Shown: positions 39,734 to 54,125, counted from the stretch's first letter. The stretch is DNA of 64,000 nucleotides from an uncultured Gemmatimonadales bacterium (GCA_963795085.1 CAWCFX010000001.1:576001-640000); one strand, 5' to 3'. Notes: generated by a model from the letters alone, not told the origin. Program-made: numbers and translations.

Positions 39734-39808
39734 GGTGGTTGTAGCTCAATCGGTTAGAGCGCCGGACTGTGGTTCCGGAGGTTGCGGGTTCGATCCCCGT
39801 CAGCCACC
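39734..39808 (+). tRNA. tRNA-His (GTG), encoded G-1, no CCA
   Basis: Cloverleaf: GTGGTTG/CAGCCAC, CCGGA-CTGTGGT-TCCGG, GGTTCGAT. Confidence 0.95.
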
Positions 39809-39899
39809 CTGCAGGAGGGAGCCAGAGGGCAGGAGGACAAGAGGGCGTGACCGGGTGCGGTCACCCCTTGCCCCCTGTCCCACTGCCCCCCGGCCACCG

Positions 39900-39972
39900 A
39901 GGTCCGTAGCTCAATTGGTAGAGCACCGGTCTCCAAAACCGGGGGTTGCAGGTTCGATTCCTGCCGGGCCTG
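39900..39972 (+). tRNA. tRNA-Trp (CCA)
   Basis: AGGTCCG/CGGGCCT, CCGGT-CTCCAAA-ACCGG, GGTTCGATT. Confidence 0.95.
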
Positions 39973-39976
39973 TTCA

Positions 39977-40122
39977 CAGTGGGCAAGTGGGCAAGTGGGC
40001 AAGTGGGCACAGTGGGACAGTGGGACAGAGGGCAAGTGGGCAAGTGGGACACTGACCACTGACTCCCGGACCCACTGACCCCCTGACTCCCGGACCCACT
40101 GACCCACTGACCCACTGACCCC
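39977..40122. repeat. Octamer hairpin (AGTGGGCA)n / (GACCCACT)n in tRNA spacer
   Basis: Direct reading. Confidence 0.9.
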
Positions 40123-40129
40123 CTTTGCT

Positions 40130-40202
40130 GGCGCTATCGTCTAGGGGACTAGGACGGGGCCCTCTCAAGGCCCAAACACGGGTTCGAATCCCGTTAGCGC
40201 TA
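40130..40202 (+). tRNA. tRNA-Glu (CTC)
   Basis: GGCGCTA/TAGCGCT, GGGCC-CTCTCAA-GGCCC, GGTTCGAAT. Confidence 0.95.
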
Positions 40203-40209
40203 TAGGAGA

Positions 40210-40322
40210 AGAGTACTGAGTGACGAGTACTGAGGTACTGAGTGCTGAGAGAGTTCGGCTGGCCGGATCATGAACTGAGATGGGAACCACTCAGTACTCA
40301 TTTCTCAGTACTCAGTACTGCT
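40210..40322. repeat. Heptamer hairpin (GAGTACT/GTGCTGA vs CTCAGTA) in tRNA spacer
   Basis: Direct reading. Confidence 0.85.
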
Positions 40323-40329
40323 GGTTTTG

Positions 40330-40401
40330 GGCCCCATCGTCTATCGGTTAGGACACCACTCTTTCAAGGTGGGAAGACGGGTTCGATTCCCGTTGGGGCT
40401 A
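40330..40401 (+). tRNA. tRNA-Glu (TTC)
   Basis: GGCCCCA/TGGGGCT, CCACT-CTTTCAA-GGTGG, GGTTCGATT. Confidence 0.95.
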
Positions 40402-40405
40402 TGCA

Positions 40406-40568
40406 AACTGAACGTGCCGCGTGCAGCGTAGCGCGTACAGCGTAACAGCATGTCGGGCCGGATCTTCACTGAAGGGCAGTTACGCTGCACGTTTAACGCT
40501 GCACGTGCGCTGCACGCTGCACGCTGCACGCTGCACGTCGTACGCTGCACGCTGCACGTGTAGTTCAA
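40406..40568. repeat. Heptamer hairpin (GTGCAGC)n / (GCTGCAC)n in tRNA spacer
   Basis: Direct reading. Confidence 0.88.
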
Positions 40569-40570
40569 GA

Positions 40571-40643
40571 GCGCCGCTAGCTCAATTGGCAGAGCAAGTG
40601 ACTCTTAATCACTAGGTTGTAGGTTCGATTCCTACGCGGCGCA
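40571..40643 (+). tRNA. tRNA-Lys (CTT)
   Basis: GCGCCGC/GCGGCGC, AGTGA-CTCTTAA-TCACT, GGTTCGATT. Confidence 0.95.
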
Positions 40644-40653
40644 TGAATGACTT

Positions 40654-40678
40654 ACGGCTCTTTCGGGAGCCGTTTTTC
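40654..40678 (+). terminator. Intrinsic terminator after tRNA-Lys
   Basis: ACGGCTCT-TTCG-GGAGCCGT followed by T tract. Confidence 0.75.
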
Positions 40679-40740
40679 ATTGGAATGTGCGCCAAATGTG
40701 CATCCTGGGACCAGGTGTTGGTCATAAGATTGCTTACGCT

Positions 40741-41516
40741 TCAAGCAAGACGCCCGAGTCGCTTTCTTCGAAAGGCCCCTAGCGCTACCAATCCCGTGCA
40801 GATCAGTGTCGTCGTCGCCGGCTCCGGTGTTACCACGACGTCGGTATGGCTCGTGACCGGGCGGACATCGCTACTCGTGTTCGGACTTCCGCAGCGCGCA
40901 AAATGCTCCTCCTCCAAGCTGATGCCATTCGAAATCCACACCGAAGCCCAGTTCCGACATCGTTATCCGGCTGGTCGGTCTATGGAAGGAAAAAACAAAT
41001 CTTCCATCGAAGCCCTGACTCGCGCAGGTCTGGATGGCATTCGGGGTCGGGCCACCGAGGTCGTAGTCATAGGGAAACGGCCCTGGGTCGCAGCCAAAGA
41101 ATCCGACTGGTTCGACGGGGGCATAGAAGAGAGTCTCAGCCCACGCGCCGTCATACCAGTTGGAATGCCAGCCACTGGGAGCTTGCCCCGATGACGTTTC
41201 ACGTTCCCCTTCATGCCGGCCGAGAGGAGCACGACCCCGGAATCTGCAGCGACCAAACCAGTTAAAGTCGGGGTCTTGATGGAAGAGGAACATCCCCCCG
41301 ATCGAGCTGCCCCCGGTGTTGTCCAAGGGGTTCACGCCCTGAGTGTTGGCGATGGTCATGACGATACGGGTGCCGGTCGAAATCCGGACGACCCGAAGCG
41401 AGACGCTGGCGCATGCGTGGAACGCACCCGGAGTGCAGACGTCCCACTGTCTTGAGGAAGCGGCGGCAGATGAGAGTGAGACCGAGGAGTGGGAGAACGA
41501 AAAGGGCGCGTCGCAT
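40741..41516 (-). pseudogene. Frameshifted PEP-CTERM-sorted surface protein
   Basis: Signal peptide MRRALFVLPLLGL, body in another frame, VTPEPAT-TM-RRKR tail in a third. Confidence 0.7.
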
Positions 41517-41921
41517 ATGGAGAGTCCGTCAAAGGATCCACATCCTTACATTGTGGAGTGGGACTCCGCTAGAGTGTGCGTGGGTACACCCCGGGGTGTG
41601 CGTCGGCGACACACTGAGGTCTATCCTGCGCCTCCCCTGGCCTCATCTGATTTAACGGTGTGGAATCCTCGCAACACCCCTACCCCCCACATAACCGGAG
41701 ATTGGGCTCCGTGAGAGTCCTGGCAACGGGAAGGCAGCGCCGTTAGAGGCGTTCTGGCGCTGACCTCGAAGAAGCGACCAGGCTAACTCGTCGGGCTCAA
41801 GAGGGCGGATCTCCGGCAATAAGCTGCGATTGCTCCGGCAGTCGTCCCGGTTCCTGGCGGCAAGTGGCTGCTTGTCGCAGCTAAAAGACGAAGCGCCGTC
41901 GCGTCGTGACGCTCCCCGGAG

Positions 41922-42300
41922 ATGACGGTCAAGGCGCTCAAGCGCCAGCGGGCCGACCAGGCGCAGGCCCGGCTCCTCCTCGGAGCGGAGTACAACGCCG
42001 AGTTGGACCTAATCTTTGCGACCCATACCGGGGAACCGCTCGACTGGCAGAACATCGCCCATCAGTACTTCCGGCCGATCCTCCGCAAGGCCAAGCTGCC
42101 GATCATCCGCCCCTATGACCTGCGGCACACTGCCGCCACGATCCTCCTCGCAGCCGGGGAACACCCTAAAGATCGTTGCCGAGCGTCTGGGCCATTCGAC
42201 CACCACCCTAACGATGGACACTTACAGCCACGTCCTCCCAGACATGCAGGATGGGGCGGCGACGAGGCTGGGCTCGTTGCTTGCAGTGAGCAACATTTAG
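41922..42300 (+). pseudogene. C-terminal remnant of phage/ICE-type tyrosine integrase, frameshift near 42170
   Basis: YDLRHTAAT, (P)KIVAERLGH, TMDTYSHVLP. Confidence 0.88.
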
Positions 42301-42396
42301 AGTATCCCCGGTGATCAGCACAGCTGAGGGGAGGGCCGCAAGCGGGCTTTACTGCGGCCCTTTTACGCTCCCATGCGTTGATCCGGCGAGGCGAGA

Positions 42397-43475
42397 ATGA
42401 TTCGAGCAGGTTGGATACTTCATTACCGCATTCACGGCACCAGCATTGATACGGACCGGCTGCCCTTGATCCGTCAGGGTAACGGTCCAAGTGTTGAGGT
42501 TGAGATCTCACGGAGACCCTCAATTGATGGTTGGGGACCCTTCACCCCTCTGAAGACCGTAATCAGCAATCAAAAGTTCGATATGACGGTCGGCCCGAAA
42601 CCTGTTCCGAGACACCCAGACCAAGATGGCTATCACGCTCCGTATACTTGGCTCATGCTCATAATCTCCGACAATTATCAGCTTACAGGTGATCTGGAGC
42701 ATCGTTTTCGGAATAACCCCGATGCTAACAAAGACGCTGTCTTTGCTGAACTCCGTGACCAACATGCCACCCTTAAGGACGATGCCCACCTCGTTGATGG
42801 GCGCGATTGCAGCTGAGTACCCCCCACACGGTCATTCAACCTTGGTCCTCCGTTCTGGCTTGCTGGCACAAGCCAAACACATGGTCAGGGGCAGCTGACT
42901 CCGCGCCTATTGAGGTCCTCCCTGCATTGCAGCAATTGAATGCCTCAGTTGTGAATCTTGCGGTTCACAGCGCAGTTGAGCTATCAAAGCGAGCAGAGAA
43001 GGAAGTGGCCCCTATCACCCTATCGGCGCGGTGGCTTAGTAGCGCAAGGGCCGCGCCACCGGCAATGTCGGCTGAGCGTTTTCCTCGGAATGTTTCGTGT
43101 GCTGGAAACGCTCTGGATCTTCCCGGCCACACCCAAGCAGGCGCTAGACACTGATTTTGCAGGGCTAGCCGAGTGGGCGGGTGAAGATCTGGATAAGTTG
43201 AAGTTTGTTAACAACCTTCGATCCTGGTACCGCCGACCAACACTTATGGAATGCTTCAGGGCTCTCGCCATGGAGTACTCACCGGAGACGGCGGAGTCAG
43301 ACATCGCTCGTTTCCAAGTACTAGAAGAAGCTTCCGTGATGATCTGGTGCATGGGAACATTCTGAGGATACCGGACGAGGTCAACACGAAAGGAACGGCA
43401 CACGATTGGGTGGCTCGTCTCGCGCACAGCTACTTTAATACGGTTATTGAAAAGGAGTCCAAGAAAACCAACTGA
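42397..43475 (+). pseudogene. Multi-frameshifted putative ApeA-like HEPN-domain protein
   Basis: Stitched frames give LSARWL..A...ERFL..F.VLETL and R(DDLV)HG; lower GC. Confidence 0.5.
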
Positions 43476-43949
43476 TGGTCAGACTGCGACTTTGGCCCCG
43501 GGTTTCGGTCCCGGTCTTTGTAAAACGCCTGCTATCTCGGCGAATAACGGAAGCTGGCGGGCAGCGTGGAACGCTAAGCAGGGCAATACTCCTCGCTTCT
43601 AAGCGAAACCCCGTTAAGGCCACTGAGACTCTAAATCACTAGGTTGTAGGTTCGATTCATACGCGGCGCATCACGAAAGTAAGAGGAGGCAGCGACCGCA
43701 GGAGCGGCCCCGCTGCCTCTTTCTGTTGGAGCCAGCCGGCAACCCGCAGCCAGCCTGGGCCCCGTCGTTGCGAGTGAGTCCGAGCCGAACGGATCTCGGG
43801 ACATTTGGCTTTCGACGGGTGGTACTGCCGGGCTCGATGACGGAATCAAGGCGTGGAGTCAGAAGGCCACAGATCCCGAGTTGCCCCCCCCTCTTGCGGC
43901 ATGCCCAGCCAGAATGCATGCTTGCCTTATCCCTGTCCCGACAGCCACA

Positions 43950-44765
43950 ATGGCGATCAAGATGTCCAAGCGGTTTGTTGACCGCGCCAAGGCACAGCTA
44001 CGCCGTTATCAGAAGATCATTGAGAGCGCACGAGCCCGGGATGTCGGAGAATCCGATACCTGTGTGATCGTGAGCGACTTTCTCTCCGATGTCCTGGGTT
44101 ACGACAAGTATGAGGATATCACAACCGAGTCTGCCATTCGGGCCACCTTCTGTGACCTAGCGATCAAGTGTGATGGGCGCCTCTGTTACCGCATCGAGGG
44201 TGGAAGTCGGTAGGAACCGATCTCAAGGAGAATCACTTGCGCCAGGCCGTTGACTACGGCGCCAAGGAAGGCTGCGAGTGGGTGTTGCTGACCAATGGCC
44301 AGGAATGGCAGGCCCATCGAATCAAGTATGACCAGCCGATAACACACGACGAGGTGTTCCGGCTTGATCTCCTGGATCCCGGGGCCGAGCTTGGCGGATC
44401 TTGCACGGCACCTGTATCTCATCGCGAAGGAAACCAGCGGTGGGAAGGATATCGATCGATTCTGGCGCCAGAAGGAGGCTACCAGCCGGTTCGTGATTGC
44501 CCAGCTCCTGCTCCAGGATAGCTTGCTGGCCGCTCTACGGCGGGAAGTGCGACGACTCTCGCCCGATGTACGGATTACTCGAGATGACCTCGGCGCGGTT
44601 CTCCGCAACGAGGTCCTCAAGCGGGAGACTTTGGAGGGCGACCGCGCAAAAGCGGCGGAGGCATTGGTCAAGCGGCTTGCACAGAAAGCGACTTCGAAAG
44701 CAGGCTGCGGCAGAAAAACCAGTTGCCGCTGTAGCCCCATGAGAGTTGAAATCCACTTCGCTTGA
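43950..44765 (+). pseudogene. HsdR N-terminal-like PD-(D/E)xK nuclease protein, frameshifted
   Basis: ESDT..IV.D.L.DVLGYDKY, CDLAIK, HLRQAVDYG, WVLLTNG.EW split over three frames. Confidence 0.75.
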
Positions 44766-44819
44766 GGCGAGGCTGCCAGGTTGCCGGTGGCGCCGGCGGG
44801 GCCGGACCACGGTAATGCG

Positions 44820-45139
44820 GGGGGAACCCGGTTTACCTCAACTACGAGCCCAGTCCGGATGCCGCCGGCGCCTGGTCCCACGACGGCCAGAGCATCGCCT
44901 TCATCAGCGGCCGCGACCTGCAGGCCGATCGGATCTACGTCATGACGGCCGATGGTACCAGCCTCCTCCTCGACGTTCCCGAGGCCCCGCCAGGAGGCTT
45001 CCCCGACTGGAGCCCCACCGACAGCCACATCGCCTTTACCGGCAACGCCGAGATCATGACCATGCGGCCGGATGGAAGCCAACTGGTCAACCTGACCAAC
45101 AACCCCGCCCAGGACCGCTACGCCAGCTGGAGCCCGTGA
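44820..45139 (+). pseudogene. C-terminal fragment of TolB/PD40-repeat protein
   Basis: PAWS..GQSIAF, IYVMTADG, PDWSP, DGSQLVNLTNNPAQDRYASWSP. Confidence 0.75.
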
Positions 45140-45241
45140 AGGGTCATCCCTTTCCCTGGCGCGCTCGCTGCCAGGACCTACCAGAACTCACGCACCTGGG
45201 GGAACTCTAAGCGCTGTGTGTATAAACACTTGTGAACACCC

Positions 45242-45291
45242 TTGCCAATTCCATTTCTGGCTGCATACTAGCAACTAACTGGTTGTCAGGC
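45242..45291 (+). promoter_or_regulatory. Putative cassette promoter (TTGCCA-16-CATACT) and attI-like site, copy 1 (core GTCAGGC)
   Basis: Conserved with copy 2; sequence after core is complementary to the end of cassette 1. Confidence 0.65.
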
Positions 45292-45320
45292 GCCACTATC
45301 TGACCCTCACGCGAGGTGGT

Positions 45321-45728
45321 ATGGTAGAATGTCGTTTATCTCAGCCATGGGCACTCGCATTCTTGAGTTGTGGCGTTCTGTTCCTTGCCTGTAGTGACCC
45401 CTCGGCACCTGACTGCGATACTCCTCCTACTATTACTGTAGGGCCCGGTGGCGCACCCTCATTCAGCTGGTCTCCGGCCTGCCCCGTTGCCGACCTCCTT
45501 GTGGAGCCTCCTGATCCGACCGGTACGTGGTACTATCGCATTACCAATGCGAACGGAAAGAATGTTCTTGAACCCCCAATACGATATGGGGAGACCCGAT
45601 TTGGGACGGTTGTTTCGGGTCCCCCACCCGGGGGTCTAATTGCGACCGTAATTTATCGAGTTACGATTTCACGTAGCGATAGCGCCGGTCACTTTGTTAG
45701 CCTCAGCTCCCTTGTCTTCCAGCGCTAG
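45321..45728 (+). CDS. Cassette 1: hypothetical lipoprotein
   Basis: GAGGT RBS, FLAC lipobox. Confidence 0.7.
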   Translation: MVECRLSQPWALAFLSCGVLFLACSDPSAPDCDTPPTITVGPGGAPSFSWSPACPVADLLVEPPDPTGTWYYRITNANGKNVLEPPIRYGETRFGTVVSGPPPGGLIATVIYRVTISRSDSAGHFVSLSSLVFQR

Positions 45729-45743
45729 GGCGTTAATAGTGGC

Positions 45744-45841
45744 GCCGAACCCGCGCTTGGAGCGGTCACCCGCGCCCAGCTACCTGCTGGACGCCACTAT
45801 ATACTGAGCGCGGATTGCCGCTCGAGCGCAAACCGATAAGC
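45744..45841 (+). repeat. attC-like site
   Basis: GCCGAAC..GCGCTTGGAG...CTCGAGCGC..GATAAGC. Confidence 0.8.
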
Positions 45842-45859
45842 GGCTGCCCAGGATCTCGA

Positions 45860-46621
45860 GTGGACATTGAATTCGGTCTCTTCTTCCTGGCTTTCATTGT
45901 CGGGCCCGCTGTGGTCGGCATGGTCTGGCAGTGGCGTGCTCGCGAGCGTAGTATTCGGCACGCGCTCGAGAAACGGAACAACCCCAGGCGTGTTGAGGCT
46001 CTGCTCCCCCTCCTGGACAGGTGTGTCGACATCCTGATCGCGGAGTATGGAGCAGACACCTTCGCTCACCCACAGCTCACGGTCGTTCCCGGAGTCATTG
46101 CGAACCGCCGCGATTTCATCCAGCATCTCATAACGCTCGCAGCAGAACGGTGGCAGATCACCCCGCCCCCAGTGAACCTTTCTGTCGTTCCTCCCAAAGA
46201 CAGGGAACATGCCGCGGGGACCTTTGTGCAGACCACCGCTGACTGGTCATTTAACGTGGATTCTGATGGCACGATAGGGCCCTCGGATGAACCCGCGTGG
46301 AGGATCTGTATTGATCCGGCTCACTTTCACGATGATCTCGCAGTGGCAGCGATCGTGGCCCACGAGTTCGCCCACGGCGTCCTGACCCGGGATGCGGTGG
46401 CTCTCGCCAGCGATGGCGAGAATGAGGTCCTGACAGATGTCGCCGCCGCGCTATCTGGCTTTGGTCAACTCATGCTCCAGATGCAAAACCGGGTGGAGCG
46501 GCAGTACGTGGCCAACGGCGGCCTGTCATACACGGTCGGCGGGCCAGGTTACCTGTGGCCCCAGGAGCTGGCTCATGTTCTCTGGCGCCACGGCAGGCTG
46601 AGCACCAATGGAGCCGCCTAA
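45860..46621 (+). CDS. Cassette 2: membrane-anchored HExxH zinc-peptidase-like protein
   Basis: N-terminal TM, AHEFAH, NEVLTD, GYL; stop lies inside GCCTAAC. Confidence 0.7.
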   Translation: MDIEFGLFFLAFIVGPAVVGMVWQWRARERSIRHALEKRNNPRRVEALLPLLDRCVDILIAEYGADTFAHPQLTVVPGVIANRRDFIQHLITLAAERWQITPPPVNLSVVPPKDREHAAGTFVQTTADWSFNVDSDGTIGPSDEPAWRICIDPAHFHDDLAVAAIVAHEFAHGVLTRDAVALASDGENEVLTDVAAALSGFGQLMLQMQNRVERQYVANGGLSYTVGGPGYLWPQELAHVLWRHGRLSTNGAA

Positions 46622-46644
46622 CACGCCCGCCATCGGAGTCGCGT

Positions 46645-47076
46645 ATGAACGAGCGTCTGTTTTGCGAATTCCTAAGCGGTATTACCGAGGCTTCAGCCAT
46701 CGCTGCTGACTTGAACGGCACGAAGGTCACGCCGGATCACTGGTCTCACCGGACGAGCGCCAACTATCGCGGGTTGCCTATCTCACGCGAGTTTACGGTT
46801 CGGCCGGAACACGTCATTCGGCTTGTGGACGCACTGTCAGCCGGGTCGCTTACATCGGACCAGGTTACGACCGCCCTCTTCTGTGTGGAAGCGGCCCCCG
46901 ATCGGTTTGTGTGGGATACGGATACGACTGAGGGGGACCGCGTTGCCAGCGCAGTCTTCTGGCTGGGGACGCCGGAGATCAATTATCCACTCACGCCGGC
47001 GAACCTGGCGAAGATTCGACATTACCTTGAGACCGGTGAGAACACATTGACGACTGCCGATACCAAGGCCCGCTAA
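46645..47076 (+). CDS. Cassette 3: hypothetical protein
   Basis: GGAG RBS; follows truncated attC (GCCTAACACGC only). Confidence 0.65.
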   Translation: MNERLFCEFLSGITEASAIAADLNGTKVTPDHWSHRTSANYRGLPISREFTVRPEHVIRLVDALSAGSLTSDQVTTALFCVEAAPDRFVWDTDTTEGDRVASAVFWLGTPEINYPLTPANLAKIRHYLETGENTLTTADTKAR

Positions 47077-47083
47077 AGTCGAG

Positions 47084-47129
47084 GCCTAGCATGCGCTTGC
47101 AGCGATCAGCCGCGCCCGGCTACCCGCGG
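47084..47129 (+). repeat. Left half of attC-like site
   Basis: GCCTAGC-ATGCGCTTGCAGCG..CCGCGCCCGGCTACC. Confidence 0.7.
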
Positions 47130-47362
47130 TACCGATCCTGCTGGCCAGCCGCCACGTCCGGAATTGGATGCCAACCAAGACCACGCGCCCGGATGGAAGC
47201 CAGCTCGTCAACCTGACCAACAACCCCGCCCAGGACCGCGACGCCAGCTGGAGCCCGTGAAGCGTCATCCTTCTCCCTTGGCGCGCTCGCTGCCAGAAGC
47301 TACCGTAACTCACGCACCTGGGGGACCCAGGCGCTCGGCTTATATATACTTACGAACACCCC

Positions 47363-47412
47363 TTGCCAATTCCGCTTCTAGCCACATACTAGCAACTAAA
47401 TAGTTGTTAGGC
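47363..47412 (+). promoter_or_regulatory. Putative cassette promoter (TTGCCA-16-CATACT) and attI-like site, copy 2 (CAACTA-AA-TAGTTG, core GTTAGGC)
   Basis: Homologous to copy 1; canonical GTTRRRY core. Confidence 0.7.
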
Positions 47413-47457
47413 GGCCCGAATCCGACACCTGGGTGGAACACTGAGAGGAGAGTCCCG

Positions 47458-47991
47458 ATGGTCTCGATGGTCATGTTGACGTTCCGCCTTGGTGTAGCAT
47501 CGTTGCTCCTTATCGCTACGGCTTGCAGTAATGAGGGGTCTGGCGACCTGCCTGCGGCGGCAGATTTGCTGTTCTCCCTACGTGCCGCGGACTCGTCAGT
47601 TGCGGCCGCAATCGCGGCGCGCGACCCTGAGCGCACTGCGGCATTTTATGCCGATAGCGCCGTCATAATGCCCGTTGCGGAACCGATCGTGGAGGGGCGC
47701 GCGGCTATCCTCGAAGAGTGGCGGCACGTTTTCGGTATTCCCGGCTTCGCCAACAACTCGCGGCTCATTGCGGCCGTGGTGTCCTCCGGTGGCGATTTGG
47801 GATACACTCGCGGAACCTACGAGTCGCTCATGCTGAGCCCCCGCGGGCAGAAGCTTGTCGAACGGGGGAAGTGGGTCACAATCTGGAAGCGCGGCGCGGA
47901 TGGCAGCTGGCGAATCGTCCTCGACATCTTTAATACGGACACGCCGCCACCAGAACATCAGCCCAGCACCGCGGAGCGTTCCGACCACTAA
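47458..47991 (+). CDS. Cassette 4: NTF2/DUF4440 (YybH-like) lipoprotein
   Basis: FYADSA..MP, GRAAI, GDLGYTRGTY, GKWVTIWKR.ADGSWRI. Confidence 0.85.
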   Translation: MVSMVMLTFRLGVASLLLIATACSNEGSGDLPAAADLLFSLRAADSSVAAAIAARDPERTAAFYADSAVIMPVAEPIVEGRAAILEEWRHVFGIPGFANNSRLIAAVVSSGGDLGYTRGTYESLMLSPRGQKLVERGKWVTIWKRGADGSWRIVLDIFNTDTPPPEHQPSTAERSDH

Positions 47992-48027
47992 TGTCGTGAT
48001 GCGCGAGCGGCCGACTGACACGCGGCC

Positions 48028-48126
48028 GCCTATCACGCGCTTGGAGTGGCCATTCGCGCCAGGTCACCCGAAGGACGCCAGGACATTATGAGCGCGGATT
48101 GACAGCTCAAGCGCAAACCGTTAGGT
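48028..48126 (+). repeat. attC-like site
   Basis: GCCTATC..GCGCTTGGAG...CTCAAGCGC..GTTAGGT. Confidence 0.85.
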
Positions 48127-48154
48127 GGCCCAAAAGCACATGTGACCGGTGACA

Positions 48155-48271
48155 ATGAACAGACTTCGCGCTTTAGTAGAAAAGGTTGCTCATTGGGACT
48201 TCATCATTCAGACCATCTTTGTCATCGGCCTCATCGTCGTTGGCTTAGTGCTGTACTTGAAGCAACGGTAG
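48155..48271 (+). CDS. Cassette 5: 38-aa single-TM microprotein
   Basis: MNRLRALVEKVAHWDFIIQTIFVIGLIVVGLVLYLKQR fills the cassette. Confidence 0.55.
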   Translation: MNRLRALVEKVAHWDFIIQTIFVIGLIVVGLVLYLKQR

Positions 48272-48294
48272 TTTCAATGGATGTTGAGCGGGCC

Positions 48295-48390
48295 ACCTAA
48301 CACGCGCTTGGAGTGGCCATTCGCGCCAGGCCACTCGCTGGACGCCAGGATGTGATCAGCGCGAATGCCATTCAAGCGCCAACCGTAGGC
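48295..48390 (+). repeat. attC-like site
   Basis: ACCTAAC..GCGCTTGGAG...TTCAAGCGC..GTAGGC. Confidence 0.88.
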
Positions 48391-48400
48391 GGCATTTCTG

Positions 48401-48649
48401 GTGACTTGGCCTGAACGAACTCTCTCGACTCGATTGCTGGCCGGCCTGGTAGGGGCGGTCTTGGGGGCGTTCATAGGATTCGGCGTAGGCGCAGGGTGGT
48501 TCCGGTCGATGAACAACGGACATCCGCCGATCGCCCAGTTCGTTGCGGGAGCGGCGATCTTAGCTTTTCTCATTTCATTCTGGGTCGGCGACCCTGCAGT
48601 CCGCTTTCTAATGCGGATGATTGGTGGAGGACGGCCGAAGCGTTTGTGA
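48401..48649 (+). CDS. Cassette 6: small two-TM protein
   Basis: Hydrophobic ORF filling the cassette. Confidence 0.6.
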   Translation: MTWPERTLSTRLLAGLVGAVLGAFIGFGVGAGWFRSMNNGHPPIAQFVAGAAILAFLISFWVGDPAVRFLMRMIGGGRPKRL

Positions 48650-48659
48650 CGCCAATGCC

Positions 48660-48757
48660 GCCTAACACGCGCTTGGATCGGTCACCCGCGCCCAGCTACC
48701 TGCTGGACGCCACTATATACTGAGCGCGGAATGCCACTCAAGCGCCAACCGTTAGGC
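48660..48757 (+). repeat. attC-like site (most canonical copy)
   Basis: GCCTAAC ... GTTAGGC with GCGCTTGGA/TCAAGCGC inner boxes. Confidence 0.92.
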
Positions 48758-48796
48758 CGCACAACCCATTCGCCGGCAGCACTTCGGGAAAGGTCG

Positions 48797-49138
48797 TTGG
48801 TGAGATTCTCGTGGTCATGCATCCTGCTTATGCCGTCTGCCTTGGCTTGCGCCAGGCAAACGGTGATGGACAAGAACTCGCCACAACCGATCGTGAAAGT
48901 GGTGGCGGAATACCCCGCCGAACTCCGACCACTCAACCGAGTAGGCCACGTCATAGCGATTTTTATGATTGACACACTGGGTGTGCCACAGGAGCATACG
49001 ATCAAGATTGTGCAGGCCTCACATCCGGCATTTGTCGCTCCAGTGCGACAGGCTATACCGCGCTGGCGCTTTCGCCCGAGTGAAGTAACAGGGGATAGAA
49101 CACCGTGGGTGCAACTCAGGTTTGACTTTTCACCGTAG
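48797..49138 (+). CDS. Cassette 7: TonB C-terminal-domain lipoprotein
   Basis: EYPAEL, G.V.A.F.IDT.G, WRFRP; ALAC lipobox. Confidence 0.75.
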   Translation: MVRFSWSCILLMPSALACARQTVMDKNSPQPIVKVVAEYPAELRPLNRVGHVIAIFMIDTLGVPQEHTIKIVQASHPAFVAPVRQAIPRWRFRPSEVTGDRTPWVQLRFDFSP

Positions 49139-49156
49139 TGCCAGACAGAGGGTGCT

Positions 49157-49254
49157 GCCTCACCCGCGCTTGGAGCGGTCAGCCGCGCCCGGCTACCTGC
49201 TGGACGCCACTATATGCTGAGGCGCGTATTGCCGCTCGAACGCCACCGTCAGGC
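49157..49254 (+). repeat. attC-like site
   Basis: GCCTCAC..GCGCTTGGAG...CTCGAACGC..GTCAGGC. Confidence 0.82.
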
Positions 49255-49309
49255 AGCCCTGAGAGAGGACCTCCCGAATTCACGCTCCCTGAGGCCGGCC
49301 CGGCAACGT

Positions 49310-49927
49310 ATGTTCCTTGGACTGATTGGCACGGCCGTCCTGGCGGTGGATCTTCTTCTCGTACACAACGAACAGATTGTCACGTGGGTACGGTTCACTC
49401 CGCCCGCAGTTGGGTTAGTGGCGATTGTGTTGTCTGCTGTTGATCGCGAGACATTGCTGGGGTTTAGCCGGATCCGAGAGCGACCGTGGGCCGTGCTCAT
49501 GGCCATCGCGATTCTTGGCACCTATCTATGGGTGAGCGCATATTCGTCACCCGTTGGGTCCGGGGCTGTCGACTGCCGGTTGCAGGAGCGACTCTGTACG
49601 GCCCCTTACTGGCTCGCGCCGGGGATTCAACAGCTGACCGTTCTGGCGCCTCTGGTCGAAGAGAGTGTATATCGCGCGGTGGGGTTCGGAGCCTTGGCGC
49701 TAGCTCTTGGGCCCATTCCGGCCCTCATCATCTCAACGGCTGCGTTTGGGTTCCTGCATCACCTCTACGGAAGCTTGCGGTGGTTCCACCTCGCCGCTGG
49801 ACTGGCGTACACGGGCCTGTACTGGTATGGCAGGTCCCTGGCTTTGAACATTGCGACTCACGCAGCGATGAACTGGGCGGTTATGCTGAGAAACCTCGCC
49901 CGCTGGTACGCTTACTATACGCCGTGA
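49310..49927 (+). CDS. Cassette 8: CPBP (CAAX/Abi) intramembrane metalloprotease
   Basis: APLVEE..YR, S..FG.LH, H...N motifs. Confidence 0.85.
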   Translation: MFLGLIGTAVLAVDLLLVHNEQIVTWVRFTPPAVGLVAIVLSAVDRETLLGFSRIRERPWAVLMAIAILGTYLWVSAYSSPVGSGAVDCRLQERLCTAPYWLAPGIQQLTVLAPLVEESVYRAVGFGALALALGPIPALIISTAAFGFLHHLYGSLRWFHLAAGLAYTGLYWYGRSLALNIATHAAMNWAVMLRNLARWYAYYTP

Positions 49928-49941
49928 TAACCCATGGAATC

Positions 49942-50040
49942 GCCCGACAGGTGCGTGCAGTCGCCGATGCGCGCTGGGCCCACTCGATGGACATCAGCAC
50001 ATGATCACCGCGAATCCCGCTCAAGCGCCAACCGGTAGGC
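49942..50040 (+). repeat. attC-like site with degenerate left arm
   Basis: Right arm CTCAAGCGCCAACCGGTAGGC conserved. Confidence 0.7.
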
Positions 50041-50065
50041 GCTACAACCATCACAACCGGAAGCG

Positions 50066-50425
50066 ATGAGCGACCAACTCGGCGGCCTGCTCAGAAGCCC
50101 GATCGCCCAGGCAGTGATCCCCGTCGGGATGCTGCTGCTCTACGTGCGGTTCGTCTGGGAATATCGCCGCGCCCTTCGGCGTCGCCTGGAGGATCCGGAA
50201 TGGAAGGTCAATACAACGCGATTCCTCGTGTGGAAGTCGAGAATGTGGTCATTCCTCGGTGTGGGAGCGTGGATTCTGCTCGTGGTGGCGGTGGACTTGT
50301 TTGGAGGGACGACGCCAGGCACCACCACGGCGTTCACGTGGGGGTTCGGCATTCTCTTTGTGTGGGTCGGGGCGACTGCGTTCATCGAGGGATTCATGGA
50401 AGGTCCCGGCGGGAATAGCCAGTGA
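50066..50425 (+). CDS. Cassette 9: three-TM hypothetical protein
   Basis: Hydrophobic ORF. Confidence 0.6.
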   Translation: MSDQLGGLLRSPIAQAVIPVGMLLLYVRFVWEYRRALRRRLEDPEWKVNTTRFLVWKSRMWSFLGVGAWILLVVAVDLFGGTTPGTTTAFTWGFGILFVWVGATAFIEGFMEGPGGNSQ

Positions 50426-50451
50426 CGCCGCCGGTTCGTGGCCCGGTCGCA

Positions 50452-50495
50452 CGGTCAACCGCGCCGGGTTACCCGCTGGACGCAGGTACTCAGGC
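50452..50495 (+). repeat. Internally deleted attC remnant
   Basis: CGGTCAACCGCGCC..TACCCGCTGGACGC..CAGGC. Confidence 0.6.
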
Positions 50496-50527
50496 AGCCA
50501 CAGTAGGGTTCTCGTGGGAGGTCAGCG

Positions 50528-50749
50528 ATGGACCAAGGCAGCGCCGATCGGGCAAAACCCGGAATCTTTCTCTACGCTTGCTCGGGATGTGCCTGCATAC
50601 TTGGCGTGTCGCTCGTCACCCTGGGCTTACTCAGCCGTGGCGGACACCCGATGCTCCCGATCCTCGCTGGAGTGTTGGCTCTCGTGCTCGGCAGCCTCCT
50701 CTTGGCTTGGGCCCGCGGCCGCTCGCGCAGGCGGACGAGGGCAGCTTAG
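50528..50749 (+). CDS. Cassette 10: small two-TM protein
   Basis: GGAGGT RBS, hydrophobic ORF. Confidence 0.6.
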   Translation: MDQGSADRAKPGIFLYACSGCACILGVSLVTLGLLSRGGHPMLPILAGVLALVLGSLLLAWARGRSRRRTRAA

Positions 50750-50773
50750 CTTCACGGAATCAATGTCGTGGCT

Positions 50774-50868
50774 GCCTAACACGCTTGGAGCAGTCAACCG
50801 CGGCTGACTACCCGCTGGACCCCACCACCTGACTCGCGCGGATGCCGCTCAAGCGCAAACCGTTAGGA
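50774..50868 (+). repeat. attC-like site
   Basis: GCCTAAC..GCTTGGAG...CTCAAGC..GTTAGGA. Confidence 0.85.
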
Positions 50869-50917
50869 ATCACGGCCACACATCCCCTATATGTCAGGCT
50901 CCTCCAGGAGGGCTCTT

Positions 50918-51170
50918 ATGCAACTGCAACTCACGGCAGTCTTTCAGAAGGTTCCCGAGGGCTATATTGGCTTTATTGAGGAACTTCCCGGCGCCAATAC
51001 TCAAGGGGCAACCCTGGACGAGGCGCGCGCAAATCTGACCGAGGCTGTCCACCTCGTGTTTGAGGCCAATCGCGCGTTGACGGAGGAACCGTGAAGTGCC
51101 GCGACACCGCGAACTCAACAACCACTTGGCTCGGACGACCTGTCGGGATCTAGAGATCGAGGAGCCCTGA
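50918..51170 (+). pseudogene. Cassette 11: hicB-like antitoxin (50918-51094) plus C-terminal hicA-like toxin fragment (51096-51170)
   Basis: ELPGANTQGATLDEARANL.EA; VPRHRELNNHLARTTCRDLEI. Confidence 0.75.
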
Positions 51171-51319
51171 GGCCCTGACACGCGCTTGGAGCGGTCAACC
51201 GCGCCCATGTCCATGCGTTGGATGGAATCCACCTCGTCAACCTGACCAGCCCCCCAGGATTGCGACGCCAGCTGGAGCCCGTGAAGGTTCCCCCTTCATC
51301 TTACCCCCGCACCGCTTCA

Positions 51320-51660
51320 GCATACTCGACACACCCGGCAAAATCGTCCGCGCGCCCTTCATAATCGAAGTTCACCTCACCGTCATACTCGACACGCCCG
51401 GCATAATCGTCCGCGCGCCCTTCATAATAGAAGTTGACCTCACCGTCATAGCCGGCACACCCGGCATAATCGTCCGCGCGCCCTTCATGATTGATGTTCA
51501 CCTCACCTTCTTACTCCGCACTCCCGAAATAATCGTCCGCGCGCTCGACGTAATCCACAGCAAACTGTAAATAATCCACAGCACACCCGGCAAAATGTTC
51601 CGCGCGGCCTGCGTAATCCACAGTGCTGTGACCGTCATACTCCACGCGGCCTGCGAAATC
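51320..51660. repeat. 21-nt periodic tandem repeat with 63-nt higher-order unit
   Basis: CATACTCGACACACCCGGCA(A/T)AATCGTCCGCGCGCCCTTCATAAT..GTT.ACCTCACCGT x~3.5, then decaying units. Confidence 0.88.
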
Positions 51661-52062
51661 CCGTGTCCCGTCCACTTTCGGCGCCAGCCGAGGCACGAAA
51701 ACACCCGAACCTGTCCTCCCGGGGAGACGCCTGCGGCATATTCGAAAACGTGGGCCTCCAACCGATGAACACGTTTTCAATGCTCCCGCCACCACCTTCC
51801 CGAAGAGCCCGCCACCACGTGGCCCCAGCCTGGCCGATCCCCTTGATCGTCAAGGAGATCGCTGCACTCAGCCTCCCCGCATCGCAACTCGTCGCCTCAC
51901 CTGCCGCACCTCTCGCGCGCCACCCTCCATTGCCCGATGGCCCGGCTGATGCCTTCGGACAGGGCGTCGGCCCGGAGTCGGGACGCCGGGACCGAGCAGT
52001 CCTCTTTCATTGGTTCCGGTCCGCCCCCGACGCGGGCCGGCTGCTCCAGAAAGGAGCGTTGT

Positions 52063-52734
52063 ATGAGATCCCCCATTCGTAGGAAACTGGAGATGGCCGC
52101 CCGGGTCCGGGAGTTCTGCCAGGCCCACATCTCCACCGAACCCGGGTTTGCTCCGGTCCTGGCACGACTGGAAGCCACCCTGGTTCGCGGTACCGCGATC
52201 GACGCCCGGCAGCAGCAAGGCTTCATGGCGTCCCGCGTCGCCCGGGGCCGCCGGCGGGAGCTCCGCCGGCTGATCCACTTCCAGCTGGTCCGCTACGTAG
52301 TCGCCCTCGGCGCCTACGCCACCCGGGCCCAGGCCGGCGAGTCGAAGCGGTTCAAGATTCCCAACTCGAGCCTCCCCAACGCCGCCTTCGTGACCGCCGT
52401 GCGCGGGCTCATCGGCGACGCCACCCAGCACCAGGAAGAACTGGTGGCCCTGGGGATGGCCCCGGCCCTGCTGGACGAGCTGACCCTCCAGGTCGGCGAG
52501 TTCGAAACCGCCGCCGAGGCGGGGCGGACCGCGCGCCGCGACCACATCGGCGCGCGGGAAGAGCTGGAAGAGGTCAACGCCAGCATCAGCGGCGAGGTCC
52601 GCGCCATTGACGGCATCGTCGGCTATAGCTTCGGGAACAACCGCGACATCATGGCGGAATGGCGCGCCGCCAAGCGGATCCCCGGTCCGCGGAAAGGAAA
52701 CAATGGGAATGTCGGAGAGACGAAAGCCGCTTAA
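52063..52734 (+). CDS. Hypothetical alpha-helical protein
   Basis: AAGGAG RBS, host-like codon usage, no motif recognised. Confidence 0.75.
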   Translation: MRSPIRRKLEMAARVREFCQAHISTEPGFAPVLARLEATLVRGTAIDARQQQGFMASRVARGRRRELRRLIHFQLVRYVVALGAYATRAQAGESKRFKIPNSSLPNAAFVTAVRGLIGDATQHQEELVALGMAPALLDELTLQVGEFETAAEAGRTARRDHIGAREELEEVNASISGEVRAIDGIVGYSFGNNRDIMAEWRAAKRIPGPRKGNNGNVGETKAA

Positions 52735-52736
52735 AG

Positions 52737-52878
52737 AGATTGAGGGAATGTTGGAATTGAGGGAAATGTGGAATTGGAATGCAGTTCCAATTCCCACATT
52801 CCTTCAATTCCACCATTCCCTCAATTCCACCATTCCCTCAATTCCAACATTCCCTCAATTCCACAATTCCCTCAATCT
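52737..52878. repeat. Family A hairpin repeat
   Basis: GAATTGAGGGAA units then ATTCCCTCAATTCC units. Confidence 0.9.
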
Positions 52879-52880
52879 AT

Positions 52881-53315
52881 CTATCTGATCTGTTCCATCA
52901 ACGTCGCCAGGTCAAAGTACTGCCGCTGCAGCTTCACCTTTCCATCCACCACCTGCATCACGTTACAGGCCCGGAGCGAGATCTTCCGGCCGGTCGCCGG
53001 CAGCGGTCCCTTCGGCGTCTGGAGCGTCCCCGTATGGGTGCCGGTCCAGGTCAGCTCGAGGACCACCATGTCCCCGCTCACGTGGCTGGCATGGAAGGTG
53101 GGCCGAGAGTCGGGAAGCGCCGCCGCCCAGCCGCGGTACATCTCCAGCACCTGCTCCGGCCCTTCGGCCTTCCGGCCGGACGCCACCTCGTCATACACCA
53201 CGTCGGACGTCATCGCCGCCCGGGCGGCCTCCCAGTCCTTCGCGGCATAGGCCAGGAACGGCGCCTTGGCGGCTTCCACCAGGCCGGGGCGGGTGGCGGT
53301 TGACTGCGCAGACAT
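52881..53315 (-). CDS. SnoaL-like ester cyclase (NTF2 fold)
   Basis: PD, GD.VV, WTGTHTG..PATGRKI, QYFD; AGGAGG RBS. Confidence 0.85.
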   Translation of the reverse strand: MSAQSTATRPGLVEAAKAPFLAYAAKDWEAARAAMTSDVVYDEVASGRKAEGPEQVLEMYRGWAAALPDSRPTFHASHVSGDMVVLELTWTGTHTGTLQTPKGPLPATGRKISLRACNVMQVVDGKVKLQRQYFDLATLMEQIR

Positions 53316-53392
53316 AAAGCTTCCTCCTGTCAGGGGGTAGATGGGTTGGAAATTCAACCTTCTCTACGCCGGAAGACACGGGGCGGATCTAT

Positions 53393-53552
53393 TAATTGAG
53401 GGAATGGGGGAATTGAGGGAATCCGGGAATTGAGGGAATCCGGGAATTGAGGGAATCTAGGAATTGAGGGAATGTTGGAATTGAAGGAAATGTTGAAATT
53501 GAGTGCAGTTCCAATTCCACATTTCCCTCAATTCCAACATTCCGTCAATTTC
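53393..53552. repeat. Family A hairpin repeat
   Basis: Direct reading. Confidence 0.9.
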
Positions 53553-53949
53553 CCTCCTCGTTCATCACCATCCACGAGGTCCCGAACCGGTCCCGCAGCA
53601 TGCCGAAGCGGGAGGCGTAGAAGGTCTTGTCCAGCTTCACGAAGATCTCGCCGCCGTCGGCCAGCAGGGCATAGATCCGTTCGGCCTCCGCGTCGCTGTC
53701 CACCCGGAGCGACAGGTAGGCGCTCCGCATCGGCTCGGCGGCCGGGATGTCAGCCCCCATGAGGACCGTGTCGCCGATCTCGATCCGGGCGTGGAGAATC
53801 TTCTGTTCCCAGCCGGCCGGGATGCCCTCCCGCTTCGGCTGGTCGCCGTGCCGCTGCACCATGGTGATCCGGCCGCCCAGGTGCTCTTCGTAGAAGCGGA
53901 ACGCCTCCTCGCAGGTCCCGCGGTAGTTGATATAGATGTCGAGCTTCAT
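53545..53949 (-). CDS. VOC/PhnB-like glyoxalase-family protein
   Basis: EEAFRFYEEHLGG, ILHA.I.IG, FGMLRDRFG.SWMV. Confidence 0.9.
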   Translation of the reverse strand: MKLDIYINYRGTCEEAFRFYEEHLGGRITMVQRHGDQPKREGIPAGWEQKILHARIEIGDTVLMGADIPAAEPMRSAYLSLRVDSDAEAERIYALLADGGEIFVKLDKTFYASRFGMLRDRFGTSWMVMNEEGN

Positions 53950-53961
53950 TTTTAGATCCAG

Positions 53962-54125
53962 GGAATTGAGTGATGCAGGGAGTCGTGGAACTGAATGGGA
54001 AATGTAAGGAATGGGGGAATTGAGGGAAATGTGGAATTGAGGGAATGTTGGAATTGAAGGAATGTTGGAATTGAATGCAGTTCCAATTCCACATTTCCCT
54101 CAATTCCAACATTCCGTCAATTCCC
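53962..54125. repeat. Family A hairpin repeat
   Basis: Near-identical to 53461-53552. Confidence 0.9.

Follow-up and report, generated by a model that had tools for sequence, protein, structure and literature searches.

An integron is usually seen as one integrase (IntI) together with one attI, the primary site of insertion, which heads the cassette array, ends in a GTTRRRY crossover box and follows no general consensus. IntI recognises the folded bottom strand of an attC site and cleaves its right core between G and TT; the cassette is excised as a circle and re-inserted at attI. The Vibrio superintegron is the classic sedentary chromosomal integron. In the parts of Cury et al. (2016; PMC4889954) that define these classes, sedentary chromosomal integrons have more than 19 attC sites, and clusters of attC sites without an integron integrase (CALIN) have two or more attC sites and no intI within 4 kb. 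There, 83% of the CALIN carry fewer than six sites and 6.6% more than ten, and the origin routes discussed are loss of intI, rearrangement and off-target insertion. A further type, described for Treponema denticola, has an intI that is transcribed towards attI (PMC3607928).

Here, we describe a cassette array on a soil-type Gemmatimonadales chromosome, located at 45.26-51.21 kb of the window (the whole stretch of DNA that was analysed, 64,000 nucleotides). It consists of ten cassettes on the + strand, each with one or two promoterless ORFs followed by an attC of about 98 nt. The window contains no IntI, while an intact IntI and the same single attC family are found on another contig of this genome (C2), and we therefore regard the array with high confidence as a CALIN, a satellite of a sedentary chromosomal integron that has since decayed. 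It is another case of a well-known kind of element, stranded far from its own integrase and mostly disabled by mutation. New in detail are the build from two modules with PD40 tails, spacers and attI-like heads, and the eroded sites beside intact-looking genes.

Like the CALIN described by Cury et al. (2016; PMC4889954), the locus has several attC sites (ten) and no intI match in 64 kb, its cassettes are unrelated to resistance cassettes, and a complete integron is present in the same genome. With ten sites it is larger than most of those CALIN, and in contrast to CALIN as characterised in that description it has a pair of attI-like heads, which carry promoter-like sites, as well as tandem modules marked by gene-tail remnants. 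It resembles sedentary chromosomal integrons in that its attC family is that of the genome's own integron of at least 38 sites and its cargo consists of small genes of mostly hypothetical function, but it lacks an integrase, and divergence and damage of the sites go much further than in the main array. The locus is a well-dissected case of how cassette arrays may escape integrase control and become fixed chromosomal genes, in a phylum, the Gemmatimonadota, whose integrons are little studied.

Ten cassettes with one attC family

Sites were called with a repeat-family search and an nhmmer profile (full copies: E 1e-21 to 4.5e-27), and bit scores were obtained with a covariance model (CM). As these models were built from this genome, recognition of the sites is circular with regard to detection, but not for the evidence from IntI, the hairpin and the cassette boundaries. 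The window holds six full, one near-full and three truncated copies:

45744..45841, + strand, attC s1: full; right core degenerated to GATAAGC; 98.8 bits; fold z -2.87
47084..47132, + strand, attC s2: left half only (nhmmer model positions 1-49); runs into PD40 tail copy 2
48028..48126, + strand, attC s3: full; left core GCCTATC, AAC lost; fold z -0.68
48295..48390, + strand, attC s4: full; right core lacks one T (G-TAGGC)
48660..48757, + strand, attC s5: full; best-kept site of the window, both core triplets intact; 107.6 bits; fold z -3.62
49157..49254, + strand, attC s6: full; both cores mutated (GCCTCAC, GTCAGGC); fold z +0.20
49954..50040, + strand, attC s7: near-full; left core and left inner box missing, right core GGTAGGC; model positions 13-97; CM 35.7 bits
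50441..50495, + strand, attC s8: remnant with an internal deletion; right end CTCAGGC; nhmmer model positions 20-56
50773..50868, + strand, attC s9: full; both core triplets intact, 2-nt deletion in the left inner box; 86 bits; fold z -2.62
51173..51206, + strand, attC s10: left third only (model positions 2-49); fused to PD40 tail copy 3

The copies belong to one family of about 98 nt with the consensus cores GCCTAAC and GTTAGGC in the alignment, which conform to the inverted cores of attC (left RYYYAAC, right GTTRRRY). A preliminary description, made from the sequence of the window, had placed a repeat array here, and both the repeat search and the nhmmer profile recovered it at that position. 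Its named motifs are all present in the alignment (GCCTAAC-like left ends, the boxes GCGCTTGGAG and CTCAAGCGC, the CCGCGC/GCGCGG stem and GTTAGGY-like right ends), every site (10/10) follows a + strand ORF as it had stated, and the GC content is indeed lower in the array (0.604) than in the flanks (0.682 and 0.684). The row of cassettes it had reported is real, but the count is ten instead of about eleven; likewise, its seven near-complete sites stand, while the partial ones number three and not four. The fourth was most likely one of two lone GTYAGGC boxes at 45285-45291 and 47406-47412, which are attI-like junctions and not attC sites. Beyond the reach of that description were the IntI elsewhere in the genome, the much stronger erosion of the window array compared to the main array, and its composition of two tandem modules rather than one run. 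An Rfam search of the window returned five tRNAs only.

Hairpin structure and cassette boundaries

Across the genome, the bottom strands of the family (n=47) fold as an R-box/L-box hairpin, the form typical of attC, in which the central spacer between the paired boxes stays unpaired: in the attC register 89.9% of the cells are paired, compared to 28.9-41.8% in six slid registers. Three hairpin pairs show compensatory changes, and two extrahelical bases are located on the 3' arm (alignment columns 85 and 91). The mean DNA fold energy is -29.6 kcal/mol for the bottom strands versus -27.4 for the top strands. The hairpin with extrahelical bases that had been proposed as a check is a property of the family as a whole, but among the six full window sites, s3 and s6 show no advantage in folding over shuffled sequence.

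The cassette boundaries provide a second line of evidence, since a crossover in the right core should leave neighbouring sites with matching ends. The left core and flank of a site are complementary to the right core and flank of the preceding site at a mean of 5.72 of 7 positions, a value reached in 0 of 10000 permutations. Complementarity is perfect in 18 of 39 neighbouring pairs versus 3.9% of unrelated site pairs. Within the window, the rule holds from s3 to s4 (7/7) and from s5 to s6 (6/7), and by eye also from s4 to s5, from s8 to s9 and at both attI-like junctions.

The integrase is located in the main integron of the genome

A six-frame search with TIGR02249, the curated model of the tyrosine recombinase IntI, across the whole genome (E<=0.001) yielded five matches and none in the 64-kb window, in agreement with the earlier statement that no integrase lies nearby; an intI beside attI and array, as in a complete integron, is not found there. 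The window does contain a frameshifted tyrosine recombinase fragment at 41922-42300. This fragment was rejected as the integrase of the array, being not IntI-like and part of a tRNA-Lys element.

The only IntI of the genome is encoded at C2:15534-16520 (375.7 bits with a cut-off of 265, 328 aa, no stops). It covers profile positions 1-313 of 315, a span which presumably includes the IntI-specific extra domain. Together with the end of contig C1, C2:1-16520 forms a complete integron with at least 38 sites of the window's attC family, which bears out the proposal of an integrase-less array with homogeneous attC sites of the sedentary type. Among the 47 full copies in the genome, the window accounts for six, the part of C2 directly downstream of intI for 21 and the end of C1 for 16; apart from a few small clusters the family is missing elsewhere. 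Only orientation suggests that a single array spans the end of C1 and the start of C2, and the two ends do not abut. The distance between the window array and IntI is probably about 0.8 Mb.

As in the Treponema denticola type (PMC3607928), intI and cassettes of the main integron are co-directional and the first attC lies downstream of intI. The same applies to L053 and L040, the two other Gemmatimonad loci with model matches. What sets the main integron (not the window) apart from this type as described (PMC3607928) are three genes between intI and attI, named by eye from their translations as AraC-type, PLP decarboxylase-like and cupin-like.

Two tandem modules with attI-like heads

The array is composed of two tandem modules. 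What is left of the 3' end of a PD40 gene precedes each of them; the module then opens with a spacer of 146 bp, which bears a putative sigma-70-like promoter, and an attI-like junction, and the cassettes follow. Module A (45140-47132) carries two cassettes and module B (47261-51206) eight, and at the end of both a truncated attC is joined to the PD40 tail that comes next.

44813..45139, + strand: 5'-truncated remnant of a PD40 (TolB-like beta-propeller) gene (Pfam PD40, E 4.3e-10); the final ~85 nt (45055-45139) make up tail copy 1
45140..45284, + strand: spacer 1; its promoter-like site, TTGCCA-16-CATACT at 45242-45269, is directed into the array
45264..45291, + strand: attI-like junction 1, CATACTAG and then GTCAGGC at 45285-45291, crossover triplet GTT mutated to GTC; aligned with the main attI region
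47160..47260, + strand: PD40 tail copy 2, 91% identical to copy 1 over 103 nt
47261..47405, + strand: spacer 2, with the promoter-like site TTGCCA-16-CATACT at 47363-47390
47385..47412, + strand: attI-like junction 2, CATACTAG, then TAAATAG, then GTTAGGC at 47406-47412
51204..51284, + strand: PD40 tail copy 3, the most decayed copy, with indels; 80% identity over 91 nt

The frame of the PD40 remnant is open from 44813, with the first start codon not before 44942; intact tandem orthologues of 294 and 339 aa are present in a genome of the same genus (G003). A second copy of spacer 1, 85-90% identical, occupies 47261-47405.

The module heads, both with GTYAGGC at their end, are putative attI sites, judged by their likeness to the main attI. 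The element CATACTAG occurs only seven times in 3.9 Mb (both strands), and three of these occurrences lie 21-45 nt before the start of an array (window 45264 and 47385; C2 11907). In addition, TAAATAG before the crossover is common to the window heads and the main attI and resembles the attI of L053, where the directly read junction has TAATAG immediately before the crossover. By eye, the sequence that follows junction 1 is complementary to the bases flanking the left core of s1. A strict promoter scan found no site at the attI of the main integron, so that CATACTAG may not be a -10 box. Besides the two spacer sites, the promoter scan of the array gave one promoter-like site on the + strand, inside cassette 7 (49515-49544).

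The junctions between truncated attC and PD40 tail differ: s2 retains about 48 nt of attC followed by about 28 nt of unassigned sequence before the tail, and s10 about 34 nt of attC. This inequality is not predicted by a single duplication without later deletions.

Erosion of the attC sites

Both essential triplets, AAC and GTT, are intact in 2 of 10 window sites (s5 and s9) versus 36 of 37 sites of the main array; by alignment column the window count is one of six full sites, to which s9 was added by reading the sequence, and none of the four partial ones. The fold z of the bottom strands ranges from -3.6 to +0.2 for six window sites, compared to -7.1 for one main-array site. As only s5 and s9 keep both triplets, the array appears to be, in essence, a set of small envelope-protein genes that has become fixed and may be transcribed from the spacer promoters. 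The presence of near-perfect main sites and eroded satellite sites with apparently intact genes in one genome offers a natural comparison for the upkeep of attC.

Origin of the array

In the scenario that we prefer, the front end of an integron, comprising attI, promoter and cassettes without intI, would have come to lie beside a PD40 gene. Unequal exchange between PD40 tails could then have duplicated it in tandem, the two copies may have gained different cassettes by IntI acting in trans, and the array would have decayed afterwards.

As to its source, the array may, tentatively, be what is left of a second complete integron that lost its intI by deletion, or else a segment separated from the main integron by rearrangement. 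The second-integron version is favoured by the attI-like heads and by the surrounding region (43.7-54 kb), which is low in GC and full of gene remnants. Since intI is transcribed towards attI in this clade, a former upstream intI could have been replaced. The second-integron version has to account for a window without any IntI-like frame (E<=0.001), in which the sole recombinase fragment is non-IntI; furthermore, the two attC subtypes of the window are also those of the main array, and a split from the latter would explain this just as well.

It is also conceivable, though doubtful, that the heads are orphan attI platforms, each with its own promoter, which still work or did so until recently. 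A single integrase on another part of the chromosome would then have served three separate docking-and-expression sites as a distributed integron, the PD40-linked platform having been copied in tandem and its cassettes kept as expressed envelope genes while the sites decayed. The attI-like heads would gain in importance if shown to work, since the usual picture of an integron is that of one integrase and one attI.

We consider it unlikely that the array arose in place, from cassettes inserted off-target at a secondary site that lies downstream of a PD40 gene, and not from an integron front end. Off-target insertion is one of the routes to CALIN discussed in Cury et al. (2016; PMC4889954), and the array does lie directly behind a native-looking gene with orthologues in same-genus genomes. 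However, the PD40 genes of G003 and of a further genome, G001, have no counterpart of the spacer behind them, and the rare CATACTAG together with TAAATAG links the spacer to the main attI.

Still less probable is an active satellite store, from which a trans-encoded IntI regularly excises and re-inserts cassettes with the two attI-like sites as working docking sites. An intact IntI and the same attC family do coexist in one genome, and Cury et al. (2016; PMC4889954) argue that an integrase encoded elsewhere in a genome may mobilise CALIN cassettes. Moreover, the first cassettes of the modules differ although the heads are duplicates, implying at least one IntI-type event after the duplication. 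Regular exchange is hard to reconcile with the state of the sites: s5 and s9, the only ones with both triplets, are not adjacent, junction 1 reads GTC and not GTT, four sites (s2, s7, s8, s10) are truncated, and the hairpins are weak. No paralogue of any window cassette was found in the main array either.

The view that these copies form a REP or MITE-like intergenic family, similar to attC but unrelated to it, is already contradicted and can hardly be maintained: the genome does have another dispersed hairpin repeat family and the sites were detected with models built from this genome, but this family clusters behind a bona fide IntI, obeys the boundary rule, forms the attC hairpin with extrahelical bases and is absent from the rest of the genome, a few small clusters excepted.

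Cassette genes

The decayed satellite array that we favour carries the following genes:

45321..45728, + strand, cassette 1: 135 aa; lipoprotein-type signal (lipobox); no Pfam family
45860..47076, + strand, cassette 2: two ORFs, c2a (45860-46621, 253 aa) and c2b (46645-47076, 143 aa)
47458..47991, + strand, cassette 3: 177 aa; DUF4440/SnoaL-like lipoprotein with lipobox (Pfam DUF4440, E 9.5e-13, positions 1-107 of 107)
48149..48271, + strand, cassette 4: 40 aa; one membrane segment
48401..48649, + strand, cassette 5: 82 aa; two membrane segments
48800..49138, + strand, cassette 6: 112 aa; lipobox and TonB C-terminal domain (Pfam TonB_C, E 2.1e-9, positions 4-78 of 79)
49310..49927, + strand, cassette 7: 205 aa; CPBP/Rce1-like intramembrane protease (Pfam Rce1-like, E 1.2e-11, positions 8-92 of 93)
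50066..50425, + strand, cassette 8: 119 aa; three membrane segments
50528..50749, + strand, cassette 9: 73 aa; two membrane segments; weak match to DUF202 that stays below the cut-off
50891..51094, + strand, cassette 10: 67 aa; HicB/UPF0150-like (Pfam UPF0150 25.5 bits, HicB_lk 17.6 bits, both below their cut-offs)

A membrane segment or lipobox is present in 9 of the 11 cassette ORFs according to a crude hydropathy and lipobox scan, as expected from the preliminary description of a mostly membrane and lipoprotein cargo. The cargo includes neither resistance nor virulence genes, and no intact toxin partner was seen for the HicB-like protein of cassette 10. The c2a protein combines an N-terminal membrane segment with an HEFAH motif. 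Its seven metagenomic homologues (49-76% identity) are all unnamed or annotated as 'hypothetical protein', and an Atlas search gave weak metallopeptidase leads only. Despite the decay of the sites, the testable cassette genes look intact; the matches to three Pfam domains run from one end to the other, and c2a has the same length as its homologues.

Identification of the repeats as attC sites

A repeat search of the window between 43 and 54 kb returned overlapping repeat families of 6-8 copies each at 45.74-51.22 kb. An nhmmer profile, built from six copies of the window repeat and run on the whole genome, matched there as well and gave 60 matches genome-wide at E ≤ 1, 47 of which were full length. 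The repeat family thus lies where the preliminary description had placed it, and all motifs named there were found in the attC alignment. Its count of seven near-complete and four partial sites held in the first part, with six full sites plus s7, but not in the second, since the partial sites number three. Rfam, at gathering thresholds, returned nothing for the attC sites in the 64-kb window, five tRNAs being its sole matches. The family is distributed over the genome as follows.

attC sites and related boxes in the genome (C1, contig of the window; C2 and C6, further contigs)
Window, + strand: full sites s1, s3, s4, s5, s6 and s9
Window, + strand: s7, which lacks the left end only
Window, + strand: truncated sites s2, s8 and s10
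Window, 45285 and 47406: lone GTYAGGC boxes, junctions of another kind than attC
C2:363-11387: 21 full sites
C1:1381140-1389788: 16 full sites, plus one cut by the contig end
C1:1096417-1098167: further cluster and second small CALIN (cluster of attC sites lacking an integron integrase), three sites, none of which keeps GTT in the right core
C6:416450-416554: solitary full site
C6:428-441 kb: weak partial matches

Four tests, each independent of how the sites were detected, agree that the window repeats are attC sites. Genome-wide profile searches place a dense array of the family immediately downstream of a bona fide integron integrase (IntI). IntI moves cassettes by acting on the folded bottom strands of attC. 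We drew the attC structure by hand (R box, unpaired spacer, L box and stem) on 47 aligned bottom strands, and 89.9 % of the cells paired in this register versus 28.9-41.8 % in six slid registers. Compensatory changes at three stem pairs separate two subtypes, and the expected bottom-strand hairpin with extrahelical bases is present, carrying two unpaired bases, both on the 3' arm. Calculated with DNA parameters, the mean fold energy was slightly better for the bottom strands (-29.6 kcal/mol) than for the top strands (-27.4 kcal/mol). The integron crossover takes place inside the right core of attC, from which a fit is expected between the left core of cassette n and the right-core tail of site n-1. 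On average 5.72 of 7 positions agreed and 18 of 39 comparisons were perfect, in comparison to 3.9 % of unrelated site pairs; none of 10000 permutations reached the observed mean. Each of the ten window sites is preceded by an ORF on the same (+) strand, as had been noticed before.

The cognate integrase and the main integron

Run on the genome in six frames, the integrase model TIGR02249 gave one match above the curated cut-off (375 bits versus 265) at C2:15552-16487, spanning profile positions 1-313 of 315 with an intact frame of 328 aa. In the 64-kb window, the same search found no IntI-like frame at E ≤ 0.001, so the earlier statement that no integrase lies near the array holds for IntI. 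By the definition of Cury et al. (2016; PMC4889954), this makes the window array a CALIN; the paper already covers such clusters, their presence alongside complete integrons, and origins proposed for them. The cassettes are genuine, and the gene for their cognate integrase lies in another part of the genome. The same attC family fills the IntI-headed array on C2, which bears out the assignment to the sedentary chromosomal type: the genome also carries a sedentary chromosomal integron, of which the window array is a satellite.

Judged by their orientations, the beginning of C2 and the end of C1 are likely to belong to a single array, although a search for directly abutting contig ends found none. 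In the main integron (C2 11856-16520), intI is transcribed towards the array and lies 3.7 kb from the attI junction (about 11862), versus about 190 nt in L053, another Gemmatimonadales locus. The three ORFs in between, named by eye, encode an AraC-type regulator (opposite strand), a PLP decarboxylase-like and a cupin-like protein. The gene points towards the cassettes in this genome, in L053 and in L040, a further Gemmatimonad locus; in a further intI locus from the same genus (L103), the sequence stops short of attI. This atypical orientation is described, in the part of the source available, for Treponema integrons (PMC3607928), which have the layout in common with these three loci.

The host is a Gemmatimonadales bacterium, and the best public relatives of its IntI come from Gemmatimonadaceae and Gemmatimonadales MAGs (54-56 % identity). 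Searched with a model of the attC family (E ≤ 0.001), 18 of 60 related genomes gave sites, among them three of the four of the same genus. Two of these four same-genus genomes have an IntI above the cut-off. Gemmatimonadota are among the phyla listed as integron-bearing in the accessible part of PMC8618304.

Two tandem modules with attI-like heads

The single array of about 11 cassettes of the preliminary description is indeed a cassette array; it consists, however, of ten cassettes in two tandem modules and not of one run.

Modules and PD40 segments in the window
44813-45139: upstream PD40 frame, itself a 5'-truncated remnant
45055-45292: 238-nt block, copy 1
45140-47132: module A
47176-47413: 238-nt block, copy 2
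47261-51206: module B
51204-51284: copy 3, PD40 tail alone

In the 238-nt block, 85-91 % identical between its two occurrences, the final ~85 nt of a PD40 gene and its stop codon are followed by a spacer of 146 bp that ends in GTYAGGC. Truncated s2 is fused directly to PD40 tail copy 2 and truncated s10 to tail copy 3. No PD40 tail or spacer was found near the main integron; the three copies in the genome all lie within the window. A same-genus genome (G003, C131 754-3053) carries two intact PD40 lipoprotein genes in tandem (339 and 294 aa), paralogues that end like the window tails and lie inside a segmental duplication. The PD40 gene is therefore native to the lineage, and the window is not the only case of tandem duplication at this locus. 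The spacer has no counterpart in the DNA behind the PD40 genes of same-genus genomes and is, on this comparison, not native.

The main array starts at about 11862 on C2 (- strand) with ...TAAATAGGAG/TTAGGC (slash, junction). By reading, the bases after this junction and the left-core flank of the first attC complement each other exactly, and CATACTAG is located 45 nt upstream. In the window spacers, CATACTAG stands 21 nt before TAACTGGTTG/TCAGGC (copy 1) or TAAATAGTTG/TTAGGC (copy 2). Counting both strands, the 3.9-Mb genome has only seven occurrences of it, three of them at the main-array head and the two window heads. L053 has intI, about 190 nt, ...GTAATAG/TTAGGC and then cassettes. Because both window heads resemble the main-integron head and the L053 junction, we regard them as putatively attI-like. 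Their CATACT is the second hexamer of a promoter-like TTGCCA-16-CATACT in both spacers (promoter scan); a strict scan at the main attI gave no such site.

We propose that an integron front end without intI was placed behind the PD40 gene, and that an attC-to-PD40 deletion then made the right-hand junction. The module would have been duplicated when the PD40 tails on either side of it recombined unequally; the s2 and s10 junctions differ, which a single duplication does not predict, and later deletions would be needed. Subsequently, IntI may have changed, in trans, the set of cassettes in at least one module, because the first cassettes of the modules differ, and finally the sites would have decayed with the genes kept. 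Two elements integrated in tandem at the PD40 tail would be expected to give the same picture. That a second intI was lost, rather than a piece split off from the main array, is possible but somewhat doubtful, and off-target insertion of cassettes at a secondary site is unlikely. In the accessible parts of the literature on Gemmatimonadota integrons, CALINs with sedentary chromosomal integrons and Treponema integron orientation, we found no description of attI-like, promoter-bearing CALIN heads or of gene-tail-marked tandem modules, and we do not claim that none exists.

Erosion of the sites and state of the cassette genes

The window array is eroded, and an active satellite array is accordingly unlikely. 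Both essential triplets (AAC left, GTT right) are kept in 36 of 37 main-array sites versus one of six full window sites when scored by alignment columns; on direct reading s9 also keeps both, its alignment gap being a 2-nt loss in the inner box. Two of the ten window sites (s5 and s9) and none of the four partial ones thus retain both triplets, and since s5 and s9 are non-adjacent, no single cassette has good sites on both sides. Junction 1 reads GTC. Covariance-model scores ranged from 82.6 to 107.6 bits in the six full window sites and from 103.5 to 125.7 bits in the full main-array sites, save two at 89.6 and 62.6. The bottom-strand fold z was -2.87, -0.68, -2.94, -3.62, +0.20 and -2.62 for s1, s3, s4, s5, s6 and s9, respectively, and -7.07 for the single main-array site folded.

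The ten cassettes hold eleven ORFs, nine of which have a membrane segment or lipobox in a crude hydropathy and lipobox scan, in line with the membrane and lipoprotein cargo suggested earlier. Pfam identified a DUF4440/SnoaL-like lipoprotein, a lipoprotein with a TonB C-terminal domain and a CPBP/Rce1-like intramembrane protease, each domain (DUF4440, TonB_C, Rce1-like) being covered end to end, and, below cut-offs, a HicB/UPF0150-like protein and DUF202. For the first ORF of cassette 2, seven homologues were found; one of them, of 253 aa, matches it along its entire length with 76 % identity. Where this can be judged, the cassette genes look whole by sequence, unlike the attC sites. None of the eleven proteins matched PADLOC, no cassette paralogues were found in the main array, and a distant blastn of 45140-51210 against a plasmid collection gave no match. 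All four same-genus genomes showed nucleotide matches to attC and PD40 segments only and none to the cassette genes. Cassette 10 (50891-51172), whose ORF is the HicB/UPF0150-like one, has no intact toxin gene; by eye, the ~80 nt from the stop of this ORF to s10 may hold a broken partner.

Neighboring elements

A 14-kb stretch of low GC (0.60 versus 0.68) has a cluster of five tRNA genes (His, Trp, Glu-CTC, Glu-TTC, Lys; 39735-40643) at its left edge. A 3-kb remnant (40598-43671), with 47 nt of the tRNA-Lys 3' end directly repeated at its two ends (40598-40644 and 43625-43671; 45/47 identical, counted from the alignment), is a separate, dead integrative element. It encloses a frameshifted tyrosine recombinase fragment (41922-42300) with weak NCBIfam matches of the XerC/XerD type, which we rejected as an intI pseudogene (BLASTP against IntI, E 0.46). 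Two consecutive + strand ORFs at 43881-44521 look like one frameshifted gene, its product resembling, by eye, a restriction-enzyme N-terminal-domain type protein, one more sign that the region abounds in gene remnants. Six tandem 63-nt repeats (51258-51680; - strand ORFs 51301-51795), which immediately follow the last remnant of the PD40 tail, encode 21-residue units of the YEGRADDYAG type. Long hairpins at 52721-52903, 53377-53576 and 53947-54100 flank small - strand genes and consist of tandem 8+9-nt units (AATTGAGGGAATGTTGG type) plus their complements. A 13-mer of this unit occurs 322 times in 53 clusters genome-wide, which marks a dispersed REP-like family unrelated to attC.
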